From a virus, in UHGV virus genome UHGV-0102749: DNA of 18,456 nt; one strand, 5' to 3'. Made by a program: the position numbers and the translations under genes. Positions 5,289 to 15,262 of this stretch are shown here, one piece after another (position 1 is the stretch's first letter; each line of letters opens with the position of its first letter). The notes below the pieces were generated by a model that saw only the letters and a program-made list of their open reading frames with translations, was not told where the DNA came from and searched no databases.

Positions 5289-7040
5289 ATGATTCAGGAC
5301 GCTTTTGTGCGCCAGCGTGCGCGGCAACTTTACTGGCAGGGTTATCCGCCCGCAGAAATATCACGTCTGATGGGAATAAACCCGAACACGATTTATGCGT
5401 GGAAAAAACGCGACCAGTGGGATGAAACGCCACCCGTGCAGCGTGTCACGCAATCCATCGATGCGCGCCTCATCCAGCTTACTGAAAAACAGAATAAAAC
5501 AGGCGGTGACTTTAAGGAAATAGACCTGCTGACCCGGCAGCTTAAAAAGCTGCATGATGGCCAGCCGGATGTGATGGCCGCAGGAAAGAAAGGCCGGGCG
5601 AAAAAACTCAAAAATCATTTCACGCCGGAACAGATTGCCGCACTGCGGGAAAAAATCATCAGCAGGCTGGAGTGGCATCAGCGAGGCTGGTTTGACTCCC
5701 TGACCCTTTGCAGGGAAGCCGGGATACGTAACAGGATGATCCTGAAATCCCGACAGATTGGGGCGACCTGGTATTTTGCGCAGGAAGCGCTGCTGATGGC
5801 GCTGCGTGACGATGTGGCGCAACCTTACCAGCGTAACCAGATTTTTTTGTCTGCGTCGCGTCGTCAGGCGTTCCAGTTTAAAAGCATTATTCAGAAGGCC
5901 GCGGCTGAAGTTGATGTGGAGCTGAAAGGGGGCGATAAAATCATCCTCTCCAACGGCGCAGAGCTGCATTTTCTCGGCACTTCTGCTGCGTCGGCACAGT
6001 CCTATACGGGCAATTTTTATTTTGATGAATTTTTCTGGGTCAGTCGCTTTGCTGAACTGCGCAAGGTGGCTGGCGCGATGGCAACCCTCAGCGGACTGCG
6101 GCGCACCTACTTCTCCACGCCATCCACCGAAACGCACGAGGCATACGCCTACTGGAACGGCGACCGCTGGAATGAGAAAAAGGCCACGCATAAACGCCAG
6201 CGTTTTTCTGTGGACTGGAAAACGCTGCATAACGGGCTTATCTGTCCTGACCGGACGTGGCGGCAAATTGTCACGCTGGAAGATGTGGTTAATCACGGCT
6301 GGAAACACACCGATATCGACGAAATTCGTGATGAAAACACCGAAGACGAGTTCCGCAATCTCTATATGTGTGAGTTTGTCCGCGAAGGGGAATCGGCATT
6401 TAACCTGAATATCCTGATTGGCTGCGGCGTTGACGGGTACGACGACTGGAAAGACTGGAAACCTTTTGCTCCCCGCCCGATGGGGAATCGTCCGGTATGG
6501 ATTGGGTATGACGCAAACGGCAGCAGCGGCAACGGCGACAGCGGCGCTGTGTCCGTGGTGGTTCCTCCGGCTGTGCCTGGTGGCCGTTTTCGAACGGTGG
6601 AGACGCGACGCGTTCAGGGGCTGGAGTTTGAAGAACAGGCCAGAGTCATTGAAGAGTTCACGTATCGCTACAACGTGGAACACATCGGCATTGATGTGAC
6701 GGGCGGGAACGGGGAGGCTGTTTATCAGATAGTGAAACGGTTTTTCCCTGCTGCTATTCCGTACACCTTCACGCTGTCATCAAAACGGTCGCTGGTACTG
6801 AAAATGCTGCAAATAATGCGTGCCGGGCGGTGGGAATACGATCGCGCCGAACGCGAGCTGGTCGCGGCCTTTAACGCCGTGCGTAAGGTGAAAACACCGG
6901 GCGGCTTTATCACTTACGAAACGGACCGTGCGAGGGGGATCAGCCACGGCGACCTTGCGTGGGCAACCATGCTTGCTGTCATTAACGAACCGATTGGCGG
7001 CGAAGGAGAAAACGAGCGTTTCACGGTTATGGAGTTCTGA
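5289..7040 (+). CDS. P: Terminase large (ATPase) subunit, P2 gpP position
   Basis: 583 aa (P2 gpP is ~590 aa as I recall); SD GGGGAG; divergent from the capsid operon and one-base-coupled to the portal gene (TGATG). Confidence 0.85.
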   Translation: MIQDAFVRQRARQLYWQGYPPAEISRLMGINPNTIYAWKKRDQWDETPPVQRVTQSIDARLIQLTEKQNKTGGDFKEIDLLTRQLKKLHDGQPDVMAAGKKGRAKKLKNHFTPEQIAALREKIISRLEWHQRGWFDSLTLCREAGIRNRMILKSRQIGATWYFAQEALLMALRDDVAQPYQRNQIFLSASRRQAFQFKSIIQKAAAEVDVELKGGDKIILSNGAELHFLGTSAASAQSYTGNFYFDEFFWVSRFAELRKVAGAMATLSGLRRTYFSTPSTETHEAYAYWNGDRWNEKKATHKRQRFSVDWKTLHNGLICPDRTWRQIVTLEDVVNHGWKHTDIDEIRDENTEDEFRNLYMCEFVREGESAFNLNILIGCGVDGYDDWKDWKPFAPRPMGNRPVWIGYDANGSSGNGDSGAVSVVVPPAVPGGRFRTVETRRVQGLEFEEQARVIEEFTYRYNVEHIGIDVTGGNGEAVYQIVKRFFPAAIPYTFTLSSKRSLVLKMLQIMRAGRWEYDRAERELVAAFNAVRKVKTPGGFITYETDRARGISHGDLAWATMLAVINEPIGGEGENERFTVMEF

Positions 7041-8086
7041 TGAGCAGAAAAAATAAAAAAGTGCGCATGAGTTCACGCATTGATCTCGCTGATGCGCTCA
7101 GGAAAGAATCATCGCTCAGTGCATTCACATTTGATGGTCCTTATCGCCTGACCGGGCATGACCTGCTGGACAATATGTACTGTGCTGATAACGGGCGGTG
7201 GTATGAAACCCCGGTAGACTGGTACGGTCTGGCAAGAGCTGCCCGGCAAACGTCCTGGCATCAGTCTGCGCTTTACTTTAAGCGCAATGTATTACTCGGT
7301 TGCTACATCCCGCACCCGCTGCTTTCCCGGCAGGATTTCTCGGCGCTGGCGCTGGACTGGTTTGTGTTCGGTAATGCATTCCTTGAGCTTCGAAGCAATA
7401 TGCTCGGCGAACCGCTTAAATTACGGCACGCCCTGGCGAAATACATGCGACGCGGAAGCGATCTTGAATCATGGTGGTATGTGCAGGATGGTAAGGACGC
7501 GTTTCAGTTTCGCCCTGGCAAAGTGTGCCACCTGATGAATCCGGATATTAACCAGGAAATCTACGGCATGCCGGAATATCTCGGCGCATTACTCTCGGCC
7601 AGCCTGTCTCATTCGGCGGACATGTTCAGAAAACTGTACTACGACAACGGATCCCACGCCGGGTGCATCATCTACATCGGTGCAGCGCAGGTAAACCGCG
7701 AAAGCATGGACTCCCTGAAAGAAACGCTACAGGGGGCACGTGGTGGTGGTGCGTTTAAAAACGTGCTCATTCATGCGCCCAACGGGGGCAAAGAGGGGGT
7801 GCAAATTTTGCCGTTCCAGCAGATCACCGCAAAAGATGAATTCATGAATGTTAAGGCGGCATCCCGTGATGATGTGCTGGCTGCGCACCGCGTTCCGCCG
7901 CAACTGATGGGGGCGATGCCGGGCGAAAAAAGTGCGTTTGGCGATGTGGAGAAGGCAGCGCGGGTTTACGCAATTAACGAGCTGATGCCCGTCATGGAGG
8001 CTATGAAGCACATCAATGGCTGGCTTGGCGAAGAGGTGATCCGTTTTAACTCTTATGCTCTTCTTGATGAAAAAACAGCCCCGTGA
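7040..8086 (+). CDS. Q: Portal protein, P2 gpQ position
   Basis: 348 aa (P2 gpQ ~344 aa); directly follows the terminase ATPase gene as in P2. Confidence 0.8.
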   Translation: MSRKNKKVRMSSRIDLADALRKESSLSAFTFDGPYRLTGHDLLDNMYCADNGRWYETPVDWYGLARAARQTSWHQSALYFKRNVLLGCYIPHPLLSRQDFSALALDWFVFGNAFLELRSNMLGEPLKLRHALAKYMRRGSDLESWWYVQDGKDAFQFRPGKVCHLMNPDINQEIYGMPEYLGALLSASLSHSADMFRKLYYDNGSHAGCIIYIGAAQVNRESMDSLKETLQGARGGGAFKNVLIHAPNGGKEGVQILPFQQITAKDEFMNVKAASRDDVLAAHRVPPQLMGAMPGEKSAFGDVEKAARVYAINELMPVMEAMKHINGWLGEEVIRFNSYALLDEKTAP

Positions 8087-8102
8087 TGGGGCTGTCCTTT
8101 TT
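8075..8102. terminator. Bidirectional intrinsic terminator shared by convergent genes Q and 8101..8625
   Basis: Stem ACAGCCCC (8075..8082) / GGGGCTGT (8088..8095), 5-nt loop, then CCTTTTT on the plus strand and an A-run (T-run on minus) on the other side. The Q stop codon lies in the loop. Confidence 0.6.
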
Positions 8103-8625
8103 ACCAGAGTTGAACCATTTTCTGGGTGCCGTCAGGCTTGAGATTATCAATTTCAGAGAGAACGTAATATTGAATGGCTTCACAAACGGTGGTGTAGGGT
8201 GAATTACCTTCTTTAAGTGGCACGATATTATTATTAACGCGAACCTGTATTTCATCGTTATACATTGCGATCGAAACAGGAGTGTGCACGAACGCGACTT
8301 CGCCAGGTGTGTCGTCAACCACCGTTTCAATACTAAAAGTCAGTTTTCGCTCATCATTGCTGCCCCGTGCTTTGGGGGTAGCGGCAGGGATCTGGGATAA
8401 AGGCATTCTGCGAAATCCTTCGGCTGCTTCCAGTCCGCATGAAACGTAATGCTGGCGATTACCGTCGCTATCTGTCCAGGTCTGTGATGGCAGCTCCAGC
8501 GAGATTTCATAAGCATCAACAATGCCCTGGGCAAGGCGCACAAGCGGGGTCAGATCTTCATTGCGGCGAAAGCTCTCCTTTACCTGCTCCCGTTTTTCTC
8601 TTAACTGCTTGTAATTAATGACCAT
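8101..8625 (-). CDS. Hypothetical protein (orphan cargo gene, convergent on portal gene)
   Basis: 174 aa from ATG 8625 with SD GGAGG 7 nt upstream (MVINYKQLREKREQ…). I see no recognisable motif. GC content looks lower than the structural genes. Confidence 0.6.
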   Translation of the reverse strand: MVINYKQLREKREQVKESFRRNEDLTPLVRLAQGIVDAYEISLELPSQTWTDSDGNRQHYVSCGLEAAEGFRRMPLSQIPAATPKARGSNDERKLTFSIETVVDDTPGEVAFVHTPVSIAMYNDEIQVRVNNNIVPLKEGNSPYTTVCEAIQYYVLSEIDNLKPDGTQKMVQLW

Positions 8626-8724
8626 AAGACAGCCTCCATTGATTTCTTTGCTCGTATTTTGCACTTATGAAGTATGGTCGGCAAGGTGCCGTATCGCTGA
8701 CGCGCTTCGCTTGTCTGCTGCTTC

Positions 8725-8753
8725 GCCGGGGCATAAAAAATTTATGCCCCGGC
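8725..8753. repeat. Perfect 13-bp-stem inverted repeat GCCGGGGCATAAA-AAA-TTTATGCCCCGGC
   Basis: Read directly from the sequence; no U-tract on either side, so it is not a canonical terminator. Confidence 0.7.
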
Positions 8754-9030
8754 TCTCCAGCTCCTGTATCAATCAGATAATTTCACGACGCCTTCCAGTT
8801 TATCGCCACCATCGACGGTCAGACTCTTACGCAATTCCACCGCGTTGACTGTATGTTCTCGCTGCCTCAGTGCGATTTTGACGGCCTTACCTTTCACCCC
8901 ATCAAATCAAAAGCCCTCACGCCTTTTTCATGCTCAGCGTGAGAAATATGGCCATTCTGTTGTGTCTCTGCGACATCGTTCAGGGAATGCTATTTACCCC
9001 CTGAAACGCGGGCTGTTCCCCCGTCACCTG

Positions 9031-9054
9031 CGCGCAGAAAAAGCGCGTTTTTTT
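9031..9054 (+). terminator. Terminator-like hairpin CGCGC-AGAAAAA-GCGCG followed by T7
   Basis: GC stem plus TTTTTTT run on the plus strand, with no annotated upstream plus-strand gene; it may end a small transcript or insulate the cos region. Confidence 0.35.
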
Positions 9055-9124
9055 GTGCACGCACGGATCCCTGACGGATCCAGCCGCCACGCGGGCCAGA
9101 AGGGCAAAAATTCGTTCAAAAAAA

Positions 9125-9150
9125 TTGTGCAAATTTGTGCACTATTGTGC
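9125..9150. promoter_or_regulatory. Three direct TTGTGC repeats at exact 10-bp spacing upstream of the ATPase operon
   Basis: ATTGTGCAAATTTGTGCACTATTGTGCGC; hexamers at 9125, 9135 and 9145, about 90 bp upstream of ATG 9237. Confidence 0.4.
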
Positions 9151-9236
9151 GCTAAATCGAATCCCTGTATTGCTTACCAGCTCATTACATGTAAACTCAA
9201 CAGGTAGCAATATTTACTTCCAAAAGGTGGAACAAA

Positions 9237-10436
9237 ATGGCTTTTACAAAAATCAGAATCGATAATCTGTTTTGCTTTGAAAATAGCATCCTTGACTTAA
9301 GCTTCTCCAGACCCCCGATCAACAGCTCACTGGAAGGTGAGTACATTGATGGATTTGAAAAGTTCTACTTCAAAAAGGTTTGCATCGTTTCTGGTGCTAA
9401 TGCATCTGGTAAAACATCTCTTGGTCGCGTGATGCTTTCTGTGTTGCGTTTTCTCAGTAGTGGTGTTTTCAATCCAGAACCGTTAAAAATTACTGACAAA
9501 AGAAAACCTGCATATATAGAGGTTGACTTTTTCCAGAGTCATTTAAAATGTTTGTTTAGGGCAGGTGTCTGGCTTAGGGCTATGGATGAGTCTGTTGTTG
9601 TAGAAAAAATTGCAATGGCATCTGTTGATTTAAGAAGCTCGGAATCATGCGCAAAGACGACCAAAAGACTGGATGCTGTGTGGGATGCGCAAAAGTTTGA
9701 ATTAAATGGTCAAAATAGATTTTTTTCAACCGAAAACGCTAACTCAAAAGAATTTTCCCAATATTTAGAGGATTTGGACTTTGTTCTTGGTTGGCATTTC
9801 ATTCTATCTGAAAACCAAGAGAACACGGATAAAATATCACGAATTAAGAAGAATGTGCTTAATAGCATATTAAAAACCTTTGACAATACTGTTAAATCTG
9901 TCTCAGGACTCACTCTTAAAGATGATGAGGGAAAGGAGGATTTGCAGGGTTATTCAGTAGTCTTCAATAATGGAGATAGAGTTATTATTGATATGGAAGG
10001 TGATATAACAAATAAAGATAGACTGTCTCGTGGTACTTATGAGGCAGTAAAAATATCCCATCTCCTGTCAGGAGTGCTTGAAGATAAAATAGAAGAGCGA
10101 GAGTTCAATTTCCCTTGCAGTGGGGTATACTTTTTGGATGAGAAAATGGCCTTCACTCATACTGAATTAGAAAAAATGATGGTCACGCTGATTATATCTA
10201 AGCTTTGCAGATATGGTCAATTTATATACACCACACATAATTATGATATCTTGAGCTTAGATCTGCCTACGCATTCATATACTTTTACTAAAAAAGTAGA
10301 TGGTGTAACCACTTTTGTTGAAGCTACCACACATCATAAAAAGAATGATCGCAATCTTTTAAATAAAGTAAAAAATGACTGTTTTGCAACAATACCTGAC
10401 GTTTCATTAATCGAAGAGATGCTATTTGAGGATTGA
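9237..10436 (+). CDS. ABC/AAA_21-type ATPase (OLD/AbiL/PARIS-like ATPase component)
   Basis: 399 aa; SD AAAGGTGG. Walker A GANASGKTS, Walker B-like VYFLDE, H-loop-like TTHN near the C-terminus. Strongly AT-rich relative to the flanking phage genes. Confidence 0.8.
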   Translation: MAFTKIRIDNLFCFENSILDLSFSRPPINSSLEGEYIDGFEKFYFKKVCIVSGANASGKTSLGRVMLSVLRFLSSGVFNPEPLKITDKRKPAYIEVDFFQSHLKCLFRAGVWLRAMDESVVVEKIAMASVDLRSSESCAKTTKRLDAVWDAQKFELNGQNRFFSTENANSKEFSQYLEDLDFVLGWHFILSENQENTDKISRIKKNVLNSILKTFDNTVKSVSGLTLKDDEGKEDLQGYSVVFNNGDRVIIDMEGDITNKDRLSRGTYEAVKISHLLSGVLEDKIEEREFNFPCSGVYFLDEKMAFTHTELEKMMVTLIISKLCRYGQFIYTTHNYDILSLDLPTHSYTFTKKVDGVTTFVEATTHHKKNDRNLLNKVKNDCFATIPDVSLIEEMLFED

Positions 10437-10438
10437 TT

Positions 10439-10957
10439 ATGGCAGTTAAGAAATTTGCTATTATTCTTGTTGAGGGAGATACGGAAAAAGCATTGTTTCA
10501 GGATTTCAAAACATTGCTAGGCTATCCTATTAAGAAAATAGTAATTGCTAATTTATGGAATGTTAATATAAATAAATACATGCCAGCATTAACCGAAAAT
10601 AGCGAAATCATAGTGGTTTTTGATACGGATAGGATTGAGAATCTTGATAGATTTAAGAATAATCTCAATCTATTAAAGGCGAAAAAACACACAATCCACC
10701 TATTTCAACAAACAAGCAATTTTGAGGATGAGCTTGCCAATGCTTGTGGTGTAAGTAATAGAAAGTTGTATTCTTGTTTTTGCCCAAAGATCATCTCTGC
10801 AGATAACTTCAAGAATGAATTCATTGCGCTGCGCAACAGGATGATGAAATTAGATGGACTTGGACTAAATAAAACGTTGCTTTGGAGTAGAGGGATTATC
10901 CCCCAATTGAGAGATTATAATTTTCATGTTTCCTCTCATGATGATTATTTTTTATAA
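10439..10957 (+). CDS. Small RloB/DUF4435-like (Toprim-like) protein, partner of the ATPase
   Basis: ATG at 10439, 2 nt after the ATPase stop (the ORF-track start at 10433 is TTG); SD GAGGA. N-terminal AIILVEGDTEKALF resembles the conserved EGxxE block of RloB/OLD-type Toprim-like proteins, followed by an acidic VVFDTDR motif. AT-rich. Confidence 0.65.
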   Translation: MAVKKFAIILVEGDTEKALFQDFKTLLGYPIKKIVIANLWNVNINKYMPALTENSEIIVVFDTDRIENLDRFKNNLNLLKAKKHTIHLFQQTSNFEDELANACGVSNRKLYSCFCPKIISADNFKNEFIALRNRMMKLDGLGLNKTLLWSRGIIPQLRDYNFHVSSHDDYFL

Positions 10958-11087
10958 AAATAATAGTCCTCATTAAGATAAACATATTTTAAGACACAAG
11001 ACCGCCAGCTAGGCGGCCTTATATCTTTGACGTTCGACTCCTTATTTGTTGATTGTTTTCAGAACTGGAAACCTCCCGTGCAAAGTT

Positions 11088-11399
11088 CTAATCGGGAAAT
11101 AACGCCCGGATATTTCCGGCCATCTGACTGGTTATCTGTGCGGTGGGGGCTGTCTGTAACATGTGGCGTTCTGCCCTGGTTTGTGTCACTGATAACGCCT
11201 CATCGTCAGCCCATGCAGCCAGTCGGTAAGCCTCTGCCGGATTCATTTTCAGAAGTGCCAGCCCGGCCAGAAAAGCCACGCGTTGGCCGCTTTTGCGGGC
11301 TTCTGGTGTAAGGCTGTCCAGCCAGGCGCATGCTTCGCCTTCGTTCTTGACGGCGGCTGGCTTCAGATAGAAACTTATCCGTCTGGTTGGAGTCGTCAT
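11088..11399 (-). CDS. parR: ParR-like centromere-binding protein
   Basis: 103 aa from ATG 11399, 5 nt after the parM stop. RRISFYLKP…ACAWLDSLTPEARKSGQRVAFLAGLAL aligns with plasmid R1 ParR as I recall it (RRTIAFKLNP…DTLDSIPQGERSRLNRAALTAGLAL). The ORF-track start at 11534 overlaps parM and is rejected. Confidence 0.7.
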   Translation of the reverse strand: MTTPTRRISFYLKPAAVKNEGEACAWLDSLTPEARKSGQRVAFLAGLALLKMNPAEAYRLAAWADDEALSVTQTRAERHMLQTAPTAQITSQMAGNIRALFPD

Positions 11400-11403
11400 T
11401 GGT

Positions 11404-12363
11404 TTACTCCTTGTCCATTGCGTACAGCCCATTAACCAGAGCAAACTGTGGCACCCCGTCCGCGATGAAAGTCGCATTAACTCCGCAGGCTTCGCGGATA
11501 GCGGGTGCCACAATCTCCGCCCCTCCACCGACAACCATCACCCGCCCGTAACCCGAAAAACCCGCCAGCGCGCGGATCACGCGTTGTTTCAGTGTTTCTT
11601 CCTTTTCACGAATAACCGCCATCAGGCTGGCGTAATGCGCGTCATTGTGGATGTGCTGGCGCAGCCAGGCTTCATCATGGCGATGTTCGATAATGGTATT
11701 GGCGATGTGGTGACTGGTGCGCATACCGTTAGTGGCCATCACCGACAGTACGGCATCGGCCATCAGAGAAACGCCTACGTGTGGATCGCAAAACACCTGG
11801 CTGATACCTGCCAGTTGCCCCTGAACCTTTGCCACATCCAGCGTGGTTCCGCCCAAATCCACAATCAGCAGGGATTCAAACGGACTCATGTCAGCCAGTG
11901 CCTTAAAGCCTGCCGGAATGGATTCAGGCATAACCCGCACGTTACGGATAGTGAATGCCTCACCGTTCTGGTACTCCACCGGGCGCATGACGTTCGCTTT
12001 TTTGCGGTTGATGTTGGTCATATCCGGCTGTGCGTTTGTGTCGAAATACTCGCTCAGTGGCAGGGTGACAACCACATCCACCTCCTGTGGCGTGATGCCT
12101 GATTTGAGCAGCGCGTGATGAATGGCAATGACATTCACATCGCTGTACTGGTATTGCGTGTCGGTCGTCTGGACAAAGCGATCGCTGACCGGATCAAAAC
12201 CATAGCGCACGCCATCAAGCATGTAGTTCGCGGGCTGCGTGCCACCGAACGGCGCAGACCATTCCGACTTGAAGCTGTTCGGGCTGATGGCGTTGCGGCG
12301 TTCGCCGTTCTCAGTCCATGCCAGCTTGATGTTGGTGGAGCCGTCGTCGATACAAATTTTCAT
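11404..12363 (-). CDS. parM: ParM/StbA-family actin-like segregation ATPase
   Basis: 319 aa. MKICIDDGSTNIKLAW…SPNSFK…YQYSDVNVIAIHHALL…VMPESIPAG…LIVDLGGTTLD…VMVVGGGAE tracks R1 ParM block by block (phosphate-1 DDGSTN, connect/phosphate-2 DLGGTT, adenosine GGGAE); SD AAGGAA. Confidence 0.85.
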   Translation of the reverse strand: MKICIDDGSTNIKLAWTENGERRNAISPNSFKSEWSAPFGGTQPANYMLDGVRYGFDPVSDRFVQTTDTQYQYSDVNVIAIHHALLKSGITPQEVDVVVTLPLSEYFDTNAQPDMTNINRKKANVMRPVEYQNGEAFTIRNVRVMPESIPAGFKALADMSPFESLLIVDLGGTTLDVAKVQGQLAGISQVFCDPHVGVSLMADAVLSVMATNGMRTSHHIANTIIEHRHDEAWLRQHIHNDAHYASLMAVIREKEETLKQRVIRALAGFSGYGRVMVVGGGAEIVAPAIREACGVNATFIADGVPQFALVNGLYAMDKE

Positions 12364-12394
12364 GTCGCTTTTCCTTATGTTGATTAATTAATCG

Positions 12395-12503
12395 TTTACG
12401 GGATTCTGAAATCCCGTTTTTGCCTGTTTTGTGCGCGCTTCATATATCGCTGCGCGTTTTTTGCTCATTTACGGGATTCGTGAGTCCCGTTTCTGTCTGT
12501 TTT
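12395..12503. repeat. Two ~36-bp direct repeats, each with an internal dyad (ACGGGATT…AATCCCGT) and a T-run, straddling the A stop codon upstream of parM
   Basis: Copy 1 (12395..12430) TTTACGGGATTCTGAAATCCCGTTTTTGCCTGTTTT; copy 2 (12468..12503) TTTACGGGATTCGTGAGTCCCGTTTCTGTCTGTTTT. Candidate parC-like centromere/operator or tandem terminator-like hairpins. Confidence 0.5.
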
Positions 12504-15262
12504 TTGTTTCCACTGGTCAGGCCACCCCGCAGCAGGTCTGCTTTGCGGCGGGCGCGTTCAGTGGTTTCACTGATTCTCTGTGCGTGCTCTGCGTCGCGGA
12601 TGGCGCGCAGCATGTCAGAAAGCACGGTAACGGGTGTTTTCATGGTGTTCTGGTCCTGCTGAAGTGTGGATGCCAGGCGTGCGGCGGCTTCAGGGTCTGA
12701 TGCCCCCAGCTGTGCCAGATAGCTGGCGACCGGGTTATGGCGGATCTCCGTGCTGCTTACGCCGTGATTACGGCTCAGGCGCTGCCAGAGCTGCGTGATT
12801 CGGCTGTCCGGGCGGGTATCCGGTTTGCGTACAATTTCAAATCCCTGCGGTGAAATGATGCTGCCGTCAACGTACAGACTGCCGCCCCGTAACAGGTGCT
12901 GCATCTGCTGTTCACCAATATGCAGGCCGAGAGATTCAGCAGACTCCCGCCATTCTTTAGCGAGTAATTCGTGGTTATCAGGCAAAGGCCGCTGCTGTTT
13001 GCGGCTCTGTGTCCAGCTCTGCATTTCATCACTGCTGTTTTTTGCCTGTTTGTCACGCAGCGAACGCATCAGCGCCCGGCGTTCGTGCCGTTTCAGTGAG
13101 CGCATCCATTCATCCACATCAACGCCGTCAGGAAGCTGCGGCCACGGTGCTGGCCGTTCTTCCGGCTGTTCTGTCCCGTTGTTGTCCGTTTCCTGTACAC
13201 GGGGACAGTTATTGCCACGAGTCCAAGGGGCGGCAGGGCCGCCCTGAAGGTCAAAACCATTTTCGCGGGCGCTGTCTTCCGCTTCCGGTTTACGTCTTAT
13301 CAGCTTCCAGTTATCCGGATGTGTGCACACACGGGAAGACTCCCCGATGAGTGGTGACCAGATCCCGTAAATCTGTACGCTCTGTTCGCCGTAATCGTTC
13401 GGCTCATCTGCGAGGTCGTAGGCGGTGCGAATCAGGTAGTCTTTGCGTGGAACAAGTACGCCGCCCTGTTTTTCAATGTAGGAGGCAAAACACCCGGCAT
13501 CAGCGGCAGCGAGCACTGCATCCATTGCGTCATCCTTCAGCCGTTGCGGGCCTTCCGGGTTGCGTGCCATCTGGTTGGCAAGGCGGCGCAGTTCACGCCA
13601 CACCTGACGGGAGGGGATGCCAAAGAACTGGAACTGGCGGACCCGGTGAAGGCGCGCCCAGCCGATGGCGCGCTCCACGCTCTCGGCCATTGATTTTCCG
13701 GTTTCGTGGTCAACGCGTGGCTTGCCCGTTTTCGGGTCGATACCATCCACGGCGCGGCTGTCCAGGTTCTTTCCGATGTAGGTGGCGATGTAGCTGGTTG
13801 GCGTGCCTTTTGAGCCGTCGACATACTCCACCTTAAAGCGCGGAGTAATATCATTGCCCAGCTCGTGGCGGTCTTCCTGAATGGCAATATCGCGGGTATG
13901 GGACACAATGGTGTCGATTTCTTCCGGATGTGCAAAGACCATCATATGCCAGTGCACGGTGCCGTCATGATGAGGCTCCACCGTGCGGATGCCATACCAG
14001 CGCAGGCCGTCGCGGTTCAGTTTTTTGCGGACCGCCGCAAAAAACGTGTTAACCAGGTAATCGCTGGAGTCGCGCATTGTGGCCCCGTTCCATTTGGGAT
14101 TTGGATGACCGTTCTCCGTTGTGGCGTGGTATTTTGACGGGCAGGTGACAGTCAGAAACACCGCTTTGTCGCCACGGGCTTCGGCCAGAAGTTCCAGCCC
14201 CTTCATGGTGGCCATCATTTCTGCCTTACGGTGAACCGGGTTACTTACTCCCGCGTAATACACCGTCTCGAGATCAATCGTGAACCCGTCTTCATTTTCC
14301 AGCATGAAACTTTTCAGGAAATCGCGTGTTTTCTCGCGCTGTGCGCGAAACTCGCTTAACGCGTCCTGGCTCAGATAGGGTGATGTTTTTCTGGAAACCA
14401 GACAGGCGGCGCGGAGTTGTTCTTCCCGCCACTCGCAACGTAACAGCCACAGTTTGCGTTTCCACCATTCCGCACAGGTCAGGCGAAGGATTGCGCCCGG
14501 CAGCAGCTCCGTGTCCGGTTCGTTCCTCCGGTCTTTGTCTGTTGTCAGAGCGTCATAATGTGGAGGCATGGCGTGCAGGTGTAACGCCATGCGGGCCAGC
14601 ATCTGATACGCCTTCAGCGTTACATCCATGGTCAGCTCGCCATCGGTCGCGCCAAAGCCATCGCAGAGTTTTTCAAAAGTGCCACTGAACATCGCCGCCG
14701 TCATGGTGGCCAGCGTCTGTATCTGGTGTTTGTTGAGCTGCGGCAGGTAAAGCAAATCGTCCAGGCGTTCGCGTCCGGCAAGGGAGCGATAACCCGGTGT
14801 CAGCCAGCGGTGATCGGTGCGCTCCAGACGTTCGAATATTTTGCGCAGGGTCCCACGCGCATAGCGTTCTGCCTGCCTGGCGTTTTTTCCTTTCTGACGA
14901 TCGGCTTCCTGTTTTTTGCGCAGGAAGGAGAGGTGGCGAATAAGCGGATCGCGCAGATAGGACGGCAGCAGGCGCAGCGAGGCCATGGCTTCATCCACCG
15001 CGCCGCGTGCCTGTTTTCTGGCGTCTCCTGCCAGTGTGATGGTTTTGTCCTGTTTTTCCTGTGCGTCCAGGCTTTTATTAATCAGGTTGCCCAGCGGCGT
15101 GGCGGAGAACGCCGCATCAGCCATTTCCTGGCGGCGCTCGTTCTCTGCCCGGTAGGCATCCAGCCAGGAGGAAAGCGCGGATTCAGGAGCGGGGATCCCC
15201 GTTCCTTCACGCCCCACTGCGTGGCGCGGTTGTTGCCAGTCCCTGATGTACTCTGCCGTCAT
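12440..15262 (-). CDS. A: Rolling-circle replication initiator, P2 gpA-like (HUH endonuclease)
   Basis: 940 aa. HUH motif VHWHMMVF and paired catalytic tyrosines in SYIATYIGKNLD (YxxxY), as in P2 A. Last gene of the leftward early operon. Confidence 0.8.
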   Translation of the reverse strand: MTAEYIRDWQQPRHAVGREGTGIPAPESALSSWLDAYRAENERRQEMADAAFSATPLGNLINKSLDAQEKQDKTITLAGDARKQARGAVDEAMASLRLLPSYLRDPLIRHLSFLRKKQEADRQKGKNARQAERYARGTLRKIFERLERTDHRWLTPGYRSLAGRERLDDLLYLPQLNKHQIQTLATMTAAMFSGTFEKLCDGFGATDGELTMDVTLKAYQMLARMALHLHAMPPHYDALTTDKDRRNEPDTELLPGAILRLTCAEWWKRKLWLLRCEWREEQLRAACLVSRKTSPYLSQDALSEFRAQREKTRDFLKSFMLENEDGFTIDLETVYYAGVSNPVHRKAEMMATMKGLELLAEARGDKAVFLTVTCPSKYHATTENGHPNPKWNGATMRDSSDYLVNTFFAAVRKKLNRDGLRWYGIRTVEPHHDGTVHWHMMVFAHPEEIDTIVSHTRDIAIQEDRHELGNDITPRFKVEYVDGSKGTPTSYIATYIGKNLDSRAVDGIDPKTGKPRVDHETGKSMAESVERAIGWARLHRVRQFQFFGIPSRQVWRELRRLANQMARNPEGPQRLKDDAMDAVLAAADAGCFASYIEKQGGVLVPRKDYLIRTAYDLADEPNDYGEQSVQIYGIWSPLIGESSRVCTHPDNWKLIRRKPEAEDSARENGFDLQGGPAAPWTRGNNCPRVQETDNNGTEQPEERPAPWPQLPDGVDVDEWMRSLKRHERRALMRSLRDKQAKNSSDEMQSWTQSRKQQRPLPDNHELLAKEWRESAESLGLHIGEQQMQHLLRGGSLYVDGSIISPQGFEIVRKPDTRPDSRITQLWQRLSRNHGVSSTEIRHNPVASYLAQLGASDPEAAARLASTLQQDQNTMKTPVTVLSDMLRAIRDAEHAQRISETTERARRKADLLRGGLTSGNKKQTETGLTNPVNEQKTRSDI

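Follow-up and report, generated by a model that had tools for sequence, protein, structure and literature searches.

Several systems comparable to the locus analysed here join an ABC-type ATPase to an OLD-type Toprim protein. In PARIS, an oligomer of AriA sequesters AriB, a phage protein triggers its release, and AriB then cleaves tRNA (PMC11464382). The Old protein of phage P2 has been reported to be a tRNase whose site is opened by destabilisation of the tetramer (preprint 10.64898/2026.07.10.737580). Pairs of AAA and TOPRIM_OLD genes have been validated as antitoxin and toxin in neutralisation assays (PMC10440598), and AbiL is tabulated as blocking the phage 'after transcription' (PMC13064643 Table 1). 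Here, we study a pair of genes of this kind in the virus genome UHGV-0102749, a stretch of 18,456 nucleotides (nt) that we call the window. An earlier reading of this DNA, made without database searches (the sequence-only reading), had singled out the pair as a candidate anti-phage system. We conclude, with a probability of about 0.72, that it forms a two-gene anti-phage module made of an ABC ATPase and an OLD-type Toprim nuclease, which is closest to AbiL and is carried as exchangeable prophage cargo in a cos-proximal hotspot. What is new here is the functional assignment, with a compact and tractable example in Escherichia coli, and not a new principle.

An operon encoding an ATPase and a Toprim protein

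Gene 1 (9237-10436, plus strand) encodes a protein of 399 amino acids (aa) from an ATG start. Gene 2 (10439-10957, plus strand) encodes 172 aa counted from an in-frame ATG; the list of open reading frames (ORFs) starts it at a TTG at 10433. The stop codon of gene 1 (10434-10436) and the ATG of gene 2 at 10439 leave 2 nt between them, so the tight coupling noted in the sequence-only reading is correct. Both starts are preceded by a Shine-Dalgarno motif, AGGTGG 7 nt upstream of the ATG at 9237 and GAGGA 6 nt upstream of the ATG at 10439. The motifs previously read by eye in the two proteins are also all at the claimed sites, and the call of an ATPase with a Toprim-like nuclease was borne out by Pfam and PADLOC profile searches (matches to AAA_15, AbiLi and OLD-like_TOPRIM).

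In gene 1 these motifs are the Walker A GANASGKTS (residues 53-61), FLDE (299-302) and TTHN (332-335). The protein matched the Pfam family AAA_15 (34.1 bits, cutoff 32.1), and AAA_21 was under its cutoff. The best match among defence models was AbiLi of PADLOC (PDLC02335, E-value 1.1e-27, 95 bits, residues 3-392), followed by mad3 (2.7e-11) and by AriA models (5.3e-8 and 8e-4). The AbiLi model was matched by all 50 of the diverse gene 1 homologues that we scanned (best E-value 6e-32), the AriA models by 25 of the 50. Several residues were invariant in 50 homologues: G53, N55, G58 and K59 in Walker A, S264 and G266 in the signature, D301 and E302 in Walker B, and H334 in the H-loop. By its sequence, gene 1 thus has a complete ABC-type ATPase site, signature motif included, which implies that it would hydrolyse ATP as a head-to-head dimer.

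Structure prediction and Foldseek comparison, a check already suggested in the sequence-only reading, showed gene 1 to be PtuA/Rad50-like and related gene 2 to the C-terminal region of a Burkholderia class 2 OLD protein (BpOLD). The AlphaFold2 (AF2) model of gene 1 has a predicted local distance difference test score (pLDDT) of 89. It matched PtuA of Septu, the PtuA of retrons and the heads of Rad50/SbcC, with E-values between 1e-10 and 1e-7 but template modelling (TM) scores of only about 0.4. Between the two lobes, its secondary structure shows a small mixed alpha/beta region and no long helical or coiled-coil insertion. Gene 1 had no significant sequence match in the PDB. When we searched plasmid and phage collections by tblastn, gene 1 matched one plasmid (Acinetobacter) and two phages at 27-33% identity, and there was no Lactococcus match at E ≤ 0.01 in either collection. 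Gene 1 belongs to PHROG 5836 ('unknown function') and is hypothetical in RefSeq. We presume that it is a sensor or regulator.

Gene 2 carries ILVEGDTEKALF at residues 9-20 and VVFDTDR at residues 59-65. The families initially considered for this protein were RloB, DUF4435 and OLD. Only the last was upheld by Pfam, where gene 2 passed the cutoff of OLD-like_TOPRIM (24.2 bits, cutoff 23.2), did not reach that of RloB (17.7 bits, cutoff 31.5) and had no match to DUF4435. Its PADLOC matches were weak: GajA (5.9e-5), AbiLii (PDLC02337, 7e-5, 21.5 bits, with an odd profile range), mad4 (2.3e-4) and an ATPase-Toprim model. Among its relatives, OLD-like_TOPRIM was matched by 17 of 28 and AbiLii by 23 of 45 at E ≤ 0.01 (best 1e-5). 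For the pair as a whole, NCBIfam returned sub-threshold noise alone (retron Eco8 effector, EcnA, CcmA). The PHROG of gene 2, 10204, is also of 'unknown function'. A profile search of 1.84 billion cluster representatives retrieved 824 relatives of gene 2 at E ≤ 1e-3 and 559 at E ≤ 1e-10; the best 150 were all standalone proteins of 116-195 aa.

The conservation of gene 2 is concentrated on a few residues. Across 176 relatives, D62, D64, E96 and E98 were kept in all 176, E12, G13 and K125 in 175, and E16 in 173 (the other three have an aspartate). In the AF2 model (pLDDT 93), E12 lies at the C-terminal end of strand 1 and D62-x-D64 at that of strand 3, which is the Toprim arrangement. The top Foldseek match in the PDB was 6nk8, the BpOLD C-terminal region. 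The two-metal site of BpOLD consists of E400, E404, D455, D457, T506-x-E508 and K562 (PMC6755086). Gene 2 has E-x3-E...DxD...E-x-E...K in the same order and with identical E-x3-E spacing, an equivalence based on motif order and predicted secondary structure rather than on residue-level superposition. Judged by these motifs, gene 2 keeps the full predicted two-metal catalytic set of the OLD family, corresponding to that of class 2 OLD nucleases. We presume that this compact OLD-type Toprim protein is the nuclease effector.

The two genes form a conserved unit

To characterise the pair in other genomes, we used 77 loci collected with the gene 1 alignment from one-genome-per-species bacterial genomes, together with five that we checked by hand and the window. 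A homologue of gene 2 was directly downstream of gene 1, on the same strand, in 70 of the 75 loci with room downstream, usually with a gap of -13 to +30 nt. The hosts of the paired loci belong to four phyla and include Gamma- and Betaproteobacteria, Firmicutes (among them Lachnospiraceae), Fusobacteria and Treponema. In the five hand-checked distant relatives, a protein of 159-187 aa came directly after an ATPase of 385-397 aa. A mirror-tree analysis gave a correlation of r=0.76 between the distances of the two proteins, and none of 2000 permutations of the Mantel test reached the observed value. This indicates co-inheritance and is compatible with a cognate interaction, yet shared phylogeny alone could also yield such a correlation. 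The pair is a conserved and translationally coupled operon whose genes co-diverge.

The relatives are found in varied surroundings. In Glaesserella parasuis (locus L010, 1418-8234), the pair lies between hsdR/hsdS and hsdM of a type I restriction-modification (R-M) operon. The rlo genes of Campylobacter, for 'restriction-linked ORF', are named for such a position in type I R-M loci. Other copies are found in a Psychrobacter prophage near a Cap4 nuclease, beside a lambdoid integrase at the edge of a lambdoid prophage in E. coli (43% identity), and between insertion sequence (IS) elements in Thiolapillus. Rare orphan copies of the ATPase lack the Toprim partner (L074, 6001-7625, and L080, 6001-7119); next to the first of these, a ToxN/AbiQ toxin (Pfam, 4.7e-45) is encoded on the opposite strand.

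A variable cassette in a hotspot of P2-like prophages

The window is a P2-like prophage of E. coli. The 1861-bp stretch singled out in the sequence-only reading (9100-10960) matches six complete E. coli chromosomes at 99.8-99.9% identity, e.g., that of strain 1303. In the matching region, the RefSeq annotation runs from capsid, scaffold, terminase and portal to a 'hypothetical protein' and then to a TOPRIM nucleotidyl transferase/hydrolase domain-containing protein. Beyond the Toprim gene, on the opposite strand, it lists a plasmid stability protein, ParM and the replication endonuclease gpA. We compared the window by blastn with three P2-like prophages (L011, L012 and L013). The homology of the left flank stops at 9150 and that of the right flank restarts at 11089 (at 11254 in L012). 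These breakpoints coincide with a drop in guanine-cytosine (GC) content, which is 0.32-0.39 across 9250-11000 and 35.0% over both coding sequences (36.0% in gene 1, 32.8% in gene 2), against 54.5% in everything left of the pair and 52.5% in everything right of it. Breakpoints and GC drop together delimit a variable low-GC cassette of 1.94 kb on the plus strand (9151-11088) in the gpQ-gpA hotspot. The sequence-only reading had proposed both the AT-richness and the acquisition of the pair, and the measurements agree: the cassette is low-GC, horizontally acquired DNA.

The flanks (query 7600-12000) were present in 1437 of 5426 complete E. coli genomes, and the two genes in just 6. Since so few of these otherwise similar prophages carry it, the cassette is dispensable cargo. 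In other E. coli genomes the same slot is occupied by Ea22-like genes, a DUF4760 gene with a partner, Phd/Doc, YafO or IS1. A megablast search of deposited phage genomes with the cassette gave no match.

The gpA-gpQ hotspot of P2-like phages was described by Rousset et al. 2022 (PMC9122126), and the module sits in it. The location in a variable P2 hotspot had been anticipated correctly, except that gpA is not the direct neighbour: a ParM/StbB partition pair separates it from the module. The locus is already catalogued, without a name, in the published hotspot table. Table S5 of that study gives the exact accession of gene 2, WP_000279222, with WP_000885992 beside it, as "hypothetical + hypothetical" (PMC9122126). 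The earlier remark that the pair may be a new variant was therefore generous, because its architecture is of a known kind and it had already been tabulated.

The portal gene Q (7040-8086) lies to the left of the module, and the genes of StbB, ParM and gpA (11088-15262, minus strand) lie to its right. StbB (Plasmid_stab_B, 2.4e-24) and ParM occupy 11088-12363 on the minus strand, between the cassette and gpA. Partition pairs of this type are found in about a quarter of P2-like phages (Rousset 2022, PMC9122126). The presence of one beside the cassette suggests that the prophage lineage may at some stage persist as a plasmid. The replication endonuclease gpA (12440-15262, minus strand) has 940 aa; the gpA of P2 is shorter, with about 761 aa.

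Right after the portal gene, the minus strand has an ORF of 174 aa (8101-8625, the longest ORF reaching 8664), which corresponds to PHROG 5091 ('unknown function', E-value 1.8e-67) and has no Pfam or PADLOC match. This ORF is part of the conserved flank, outside the cassette. It is annotated as 'hypothetical protein' in E. coli JJ1886 and ETEC1746, is unannotated in strain 1303, and is deleted along with 8062-8696 in strain E275a. The adjacent non-coding stretch (8697-9150) is kept in all three compared P2-like prophages, even where the neighbouring ORF is deleted, and for this reason presumably contains cos. It includes a perfect 13-bp hairpin at 8725-8753. The P2 cos sequence (GGCGAGGCGGGGAAAGCAC) had no match when up to 3 mismatches were allowed, and cos was not located. 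Overlapping palindrome and repeats, TTGTGCAAATTTGTGCACTATTGTGC, mark the edge of the cassette (9127-9152). Repeats within the cassette and near it resemble chance matches. Rfam returned no RNA family within the window.

A terminator-like hairpin with a T-run lies upstream of gene 1, at 9030-9048 on the plus strand. The region that follows the left breakpoint (9151-9236, plus strand) is specific to the cassette, includes the ribosome-binding site and is the probable location of the module's promoter. A native promoter had been supposed from about 9100. This was not confirmed by the consensus scan, which gave no sigma-70 site on the plus strand upstream of gene 1; a weak TTGCTT-16 nt-TAAACT at 9170-9197, read by eye, is under the threshold of the scan. 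A terminator-like hairpin at 11002-11025 on the plus strand (CCGCCAGCTAGGCGG then CCTTATATCT), a pattern match alone in the consensus scan, closes the operon.

In E. coli JJ1886 the same slot (L012, 1950-3329) holds genes for a DUF4760 protein and a 280-aa protein that are common in ST131-type genomes. The 280-aa protein has a weak Csx27-like match in PADLOC (1.1e-5), and the two make another uncharacterised candidate pair.

Likely mechanism and alternative explanations

The analogies with PARIS, P2 Old, the AAA and TOPRIM_OLD pairs and AbiL make us favour a sensor ATPase that keeps a toxic nuclease in check, with RNA as the target of the nuclease. By these analogies, the most likely reading is that of an AbiL-like system that would act by abortive infection of the AbiL/PARIS kind. 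In the uninfected lysogen, an oligomer of the ATPase would hold the small nuclease inactive. A signal from the infecting phage, either a phage protein or aberrant nucleic acid, would shift the state of the ATPase; the nuclease would then be released or opened and would cut an essential host nucleic acid. Growth would stop before the invading phage finished its cycle, i.e., the infection would be abortive. As target of the nuclease we tentatively favour tRNA or another RNA over DNA, at a little less than even odds; DNA, as in Gabija and the class 2 OLD nucleases, is the main alternative and somewhat less likely.

The nuclease could also nick or degrade the DNA of the phage directly and spare the host, like Gabija or class 2 OLD proteins. 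Among solved structures, gene 2 is closest to the BpOLD C-terminal region and to GajA, which both show DNA nuclease activity in vitro (PMC6755086), and the fold of the ATPase is closest to PtuA and to the DNA-end-binding Rad50/SbcC. However, Gabija needs GajB and there is no partner helicase here. Furthermore, tRNA is now the reported in vivo substrate of P2 Old, long taken as a DNase (preprint 10.64898/2026.07.10.737580), AriB is a tRNase (PMC11464382), and AbiL is reported to act after transcription (PMC13064643). On balance, a direct attack on phage DNA seems unlikely. The location of the module directly beside the ParM/StbB pair raises another possibility, that of a toxin-antitoxin (TA) addiction module in which the Toprim protein is the toxin and the ATPase the antitoxin. 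Such a module would stabilise the prophage, or a plasmid form of it, and any phage defence would be a secondary effect. Phd/Doc and YafO, found among the cargo of the same slot, are TA systems, and AAA and TOPRIM_OLD pairs act as such in neutralisation assays (PMC10440598). Yet TA behaviour and abortive defence are compatible, since PARIS is both, and relatives of the pair also occur outside plasmids and prophages, e.g., within the type I R-M operon. As an antitoxin, the ATPase would be unusually large and fully catalytic, features that suggest a role in sensing rather than in simple neutralisation. We therefore regard a role that is primarily one of addiction as improbable.

RecF (an SMC-like ABC ATPase) and RecR (a Toprim protein) form a housekeeping pair of similar sizes, and the module adjoins the region of replication gene A. 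The pair might thus be imagined as an accessory of recombination, replication or repair, with a RecF/RecR-like ATPase, a non-catalytic Toprim protein and no role in conflict. This is very improbable: Pfam and NCBIfam gave no RecF or RecR family match, gene 2 has neither a helix-hairpin-helix nor a zinc-finger segment and keeps all the catalytic residues of OLD nucleases, and the cassette is low-GC, horizontally acquired DNA present in 6 of 1437 similar prophages.

Several observations weigh against an AbiL-like defence module. The family assignments of gene 2 are all marginal (one bit above the cutoff for OLD-like_TOPRIM, below it for RloB, 7e-5 for AbiLii), and searches of PDB sequences with gene 2 or with its family profile gave nothing significant. 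AriA, GajA and PtuA use a long helical or coiled-coil insertion for assembly. Gene 1 has no insertion of this type, and its regulation may therefore differ. The 111 nearest neighbouring ORFs of the relatives are heterogeneous and include few defence genes: ResIII 6 (~5%), DEAD 5, integrase 3, N6_Mtase 2, restriction endonuclease 2 and UvrD 2. The association with defence and mobile DNA is thus present but modest. WP_000279222 is absent from the table of assayed systems in the hotspot study (PMC9122126). Finally, the formation of a complex, its trigger and its substrate, as proposed above, are drawn purely from analogy.

The small Toprim family has at least 824 representatives at 50% identity. 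A bolder and rather unlikely proposal is that the pair represents a distinct and widespread family, in which a minimal ABC ATPase, free of the coiled-coil insertion, controls a minimal OLD-type nuclease of 170 aa. Its trigger or target might then differ from those of PARIS, Old and Gabija, e.g., it might sense rival P2-like phages or P4 satellites at the cos-proximal locus that they share.

Implications

Systems of the AbiL type turn up in many genomes. If the AbiL-like assignment is true, this prophage-borne version from enterobacteria would let their mechanism be studied with standard phage panels in E. coli. With 399 + 172 aa and a confident AF2 model for each protein, the very compact pair lends itself to biochemical and structural work. 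The module shows that the slot filled by old and tin in P2 can hold a split and minimal form of the same ATPase-Toprim logic, and PHROG 5836, PHROG 10204 and the 'hypothetical protein' entries of RefSeq would gain a functional annotation. The gain is incremental, as earlier work had already described the architecture, the hotspot and the likely logic.

Comparison with known systems

Some systems with related proteins could be set aside by their gene content. In Septu, PtuA is the closest in fold to gene 1, but the partner here is a Toprim protein without an HNH match, in place of the HNH nuclease PtuB. Gabija requires the UvrD-like helicase gene gajB, which is missing from the cassette and its flanks. 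GajA itself (class 2 OLD), like P2 Old and the other class 1 OLD proteins, shares with the pair the ABC ATPase and OLD-type Toprim modules and the set of catalytic residues, and the old gene of P2 occupies the same locus. In these proteins, however, the modules are fused in one polypeptide of ~590 aa with a dimerisation insertion, whereas here they are separate ORFs of 399 and 172 aa, and the best 150 relatives of gene 2 are likewise standalone, which rejects a fused class 1 OLD. MADS has a similar pair of an ATPase and a small Toprim-like protein, mad3 and mad4 (2.7e-11 and 2.3e-4 for our two proteins). The full system comprises mad1-mad8, including a methyltransferase; its other genes are absent from the window, and the cassette has two genes. 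The RloA/RloB pair of type I R-M loci of Campylobacter also joins an ATPase to a small Toprim-like protein, and the Glaesserella relative lies between hsdR and hsdM, but gene 2 scores 17.7 bits with the RloB profile of Pfam, against a cutoff of 31.5.

The sequence-only reading had left the choice between AbiL, PARIS and a split OLD-like system. PARIS resembles the module in being a split ABC ATPase and Toprim nuclease at the cos-proximal hotspot of the P2/P4 phage-satellite system, and its abortive logic of toxin-antitoxin type is our working model for the mechanism. The proteins differ: gene 2 has 172 aa and AriB about 35 kDa, and the AriA scores of gene 1 are about 20 orders of magnitude weaker than those of AbiLi. 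DUF4435 (PF14491) was matched neither by gene 2 at E ≤ 1 nor by any of 73 relatives (28 scanned at E ≤ 0.1, 45 at E ≤ 0.01), the AriB model of PADLOC by neither gene 2 nor its relatives, and the top 50 Foldseek matches included neither AriA nor AriB. We therefore rejected PARIS, and AbiL was left as the closest of the proposed systems (AbiLi, 1.1e-27).

The AbiL system of Lactococcus lactis (AbiLi/AbiLii, pND861) differs in some respects: AbiLi has 453 aa and gene 1 has 399 (length from the legend of Fig. 6 of a review, a superposition of AriA and AbiLi), gene 2 misses the Pfam cutoff of RloB, and the host and phage are here enterobacterial. Yet the arrangement is shared: in a two-gene operon, the gene of an ABC (AAA_15/21) ATPase precedes that of a small Toprim/OLD-like protein. 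Gene 1 matches the AbiLi model of PADLOC and gene 2 is borderline for AbiLii, a likeness to family models rather than to the original lactococcal AbiL sequences. In structure, AbiLii and gene 2 both have the C-terminal region of a class 2 OLD protein as best match. The pair thus belongs with AbiL, PARIS, the mad3-mad4 pair of MADS and RloAB to the kind of systems made of a split ABC ATPase and an OLD-type Toprim protein, and among these AbiL is the closest.

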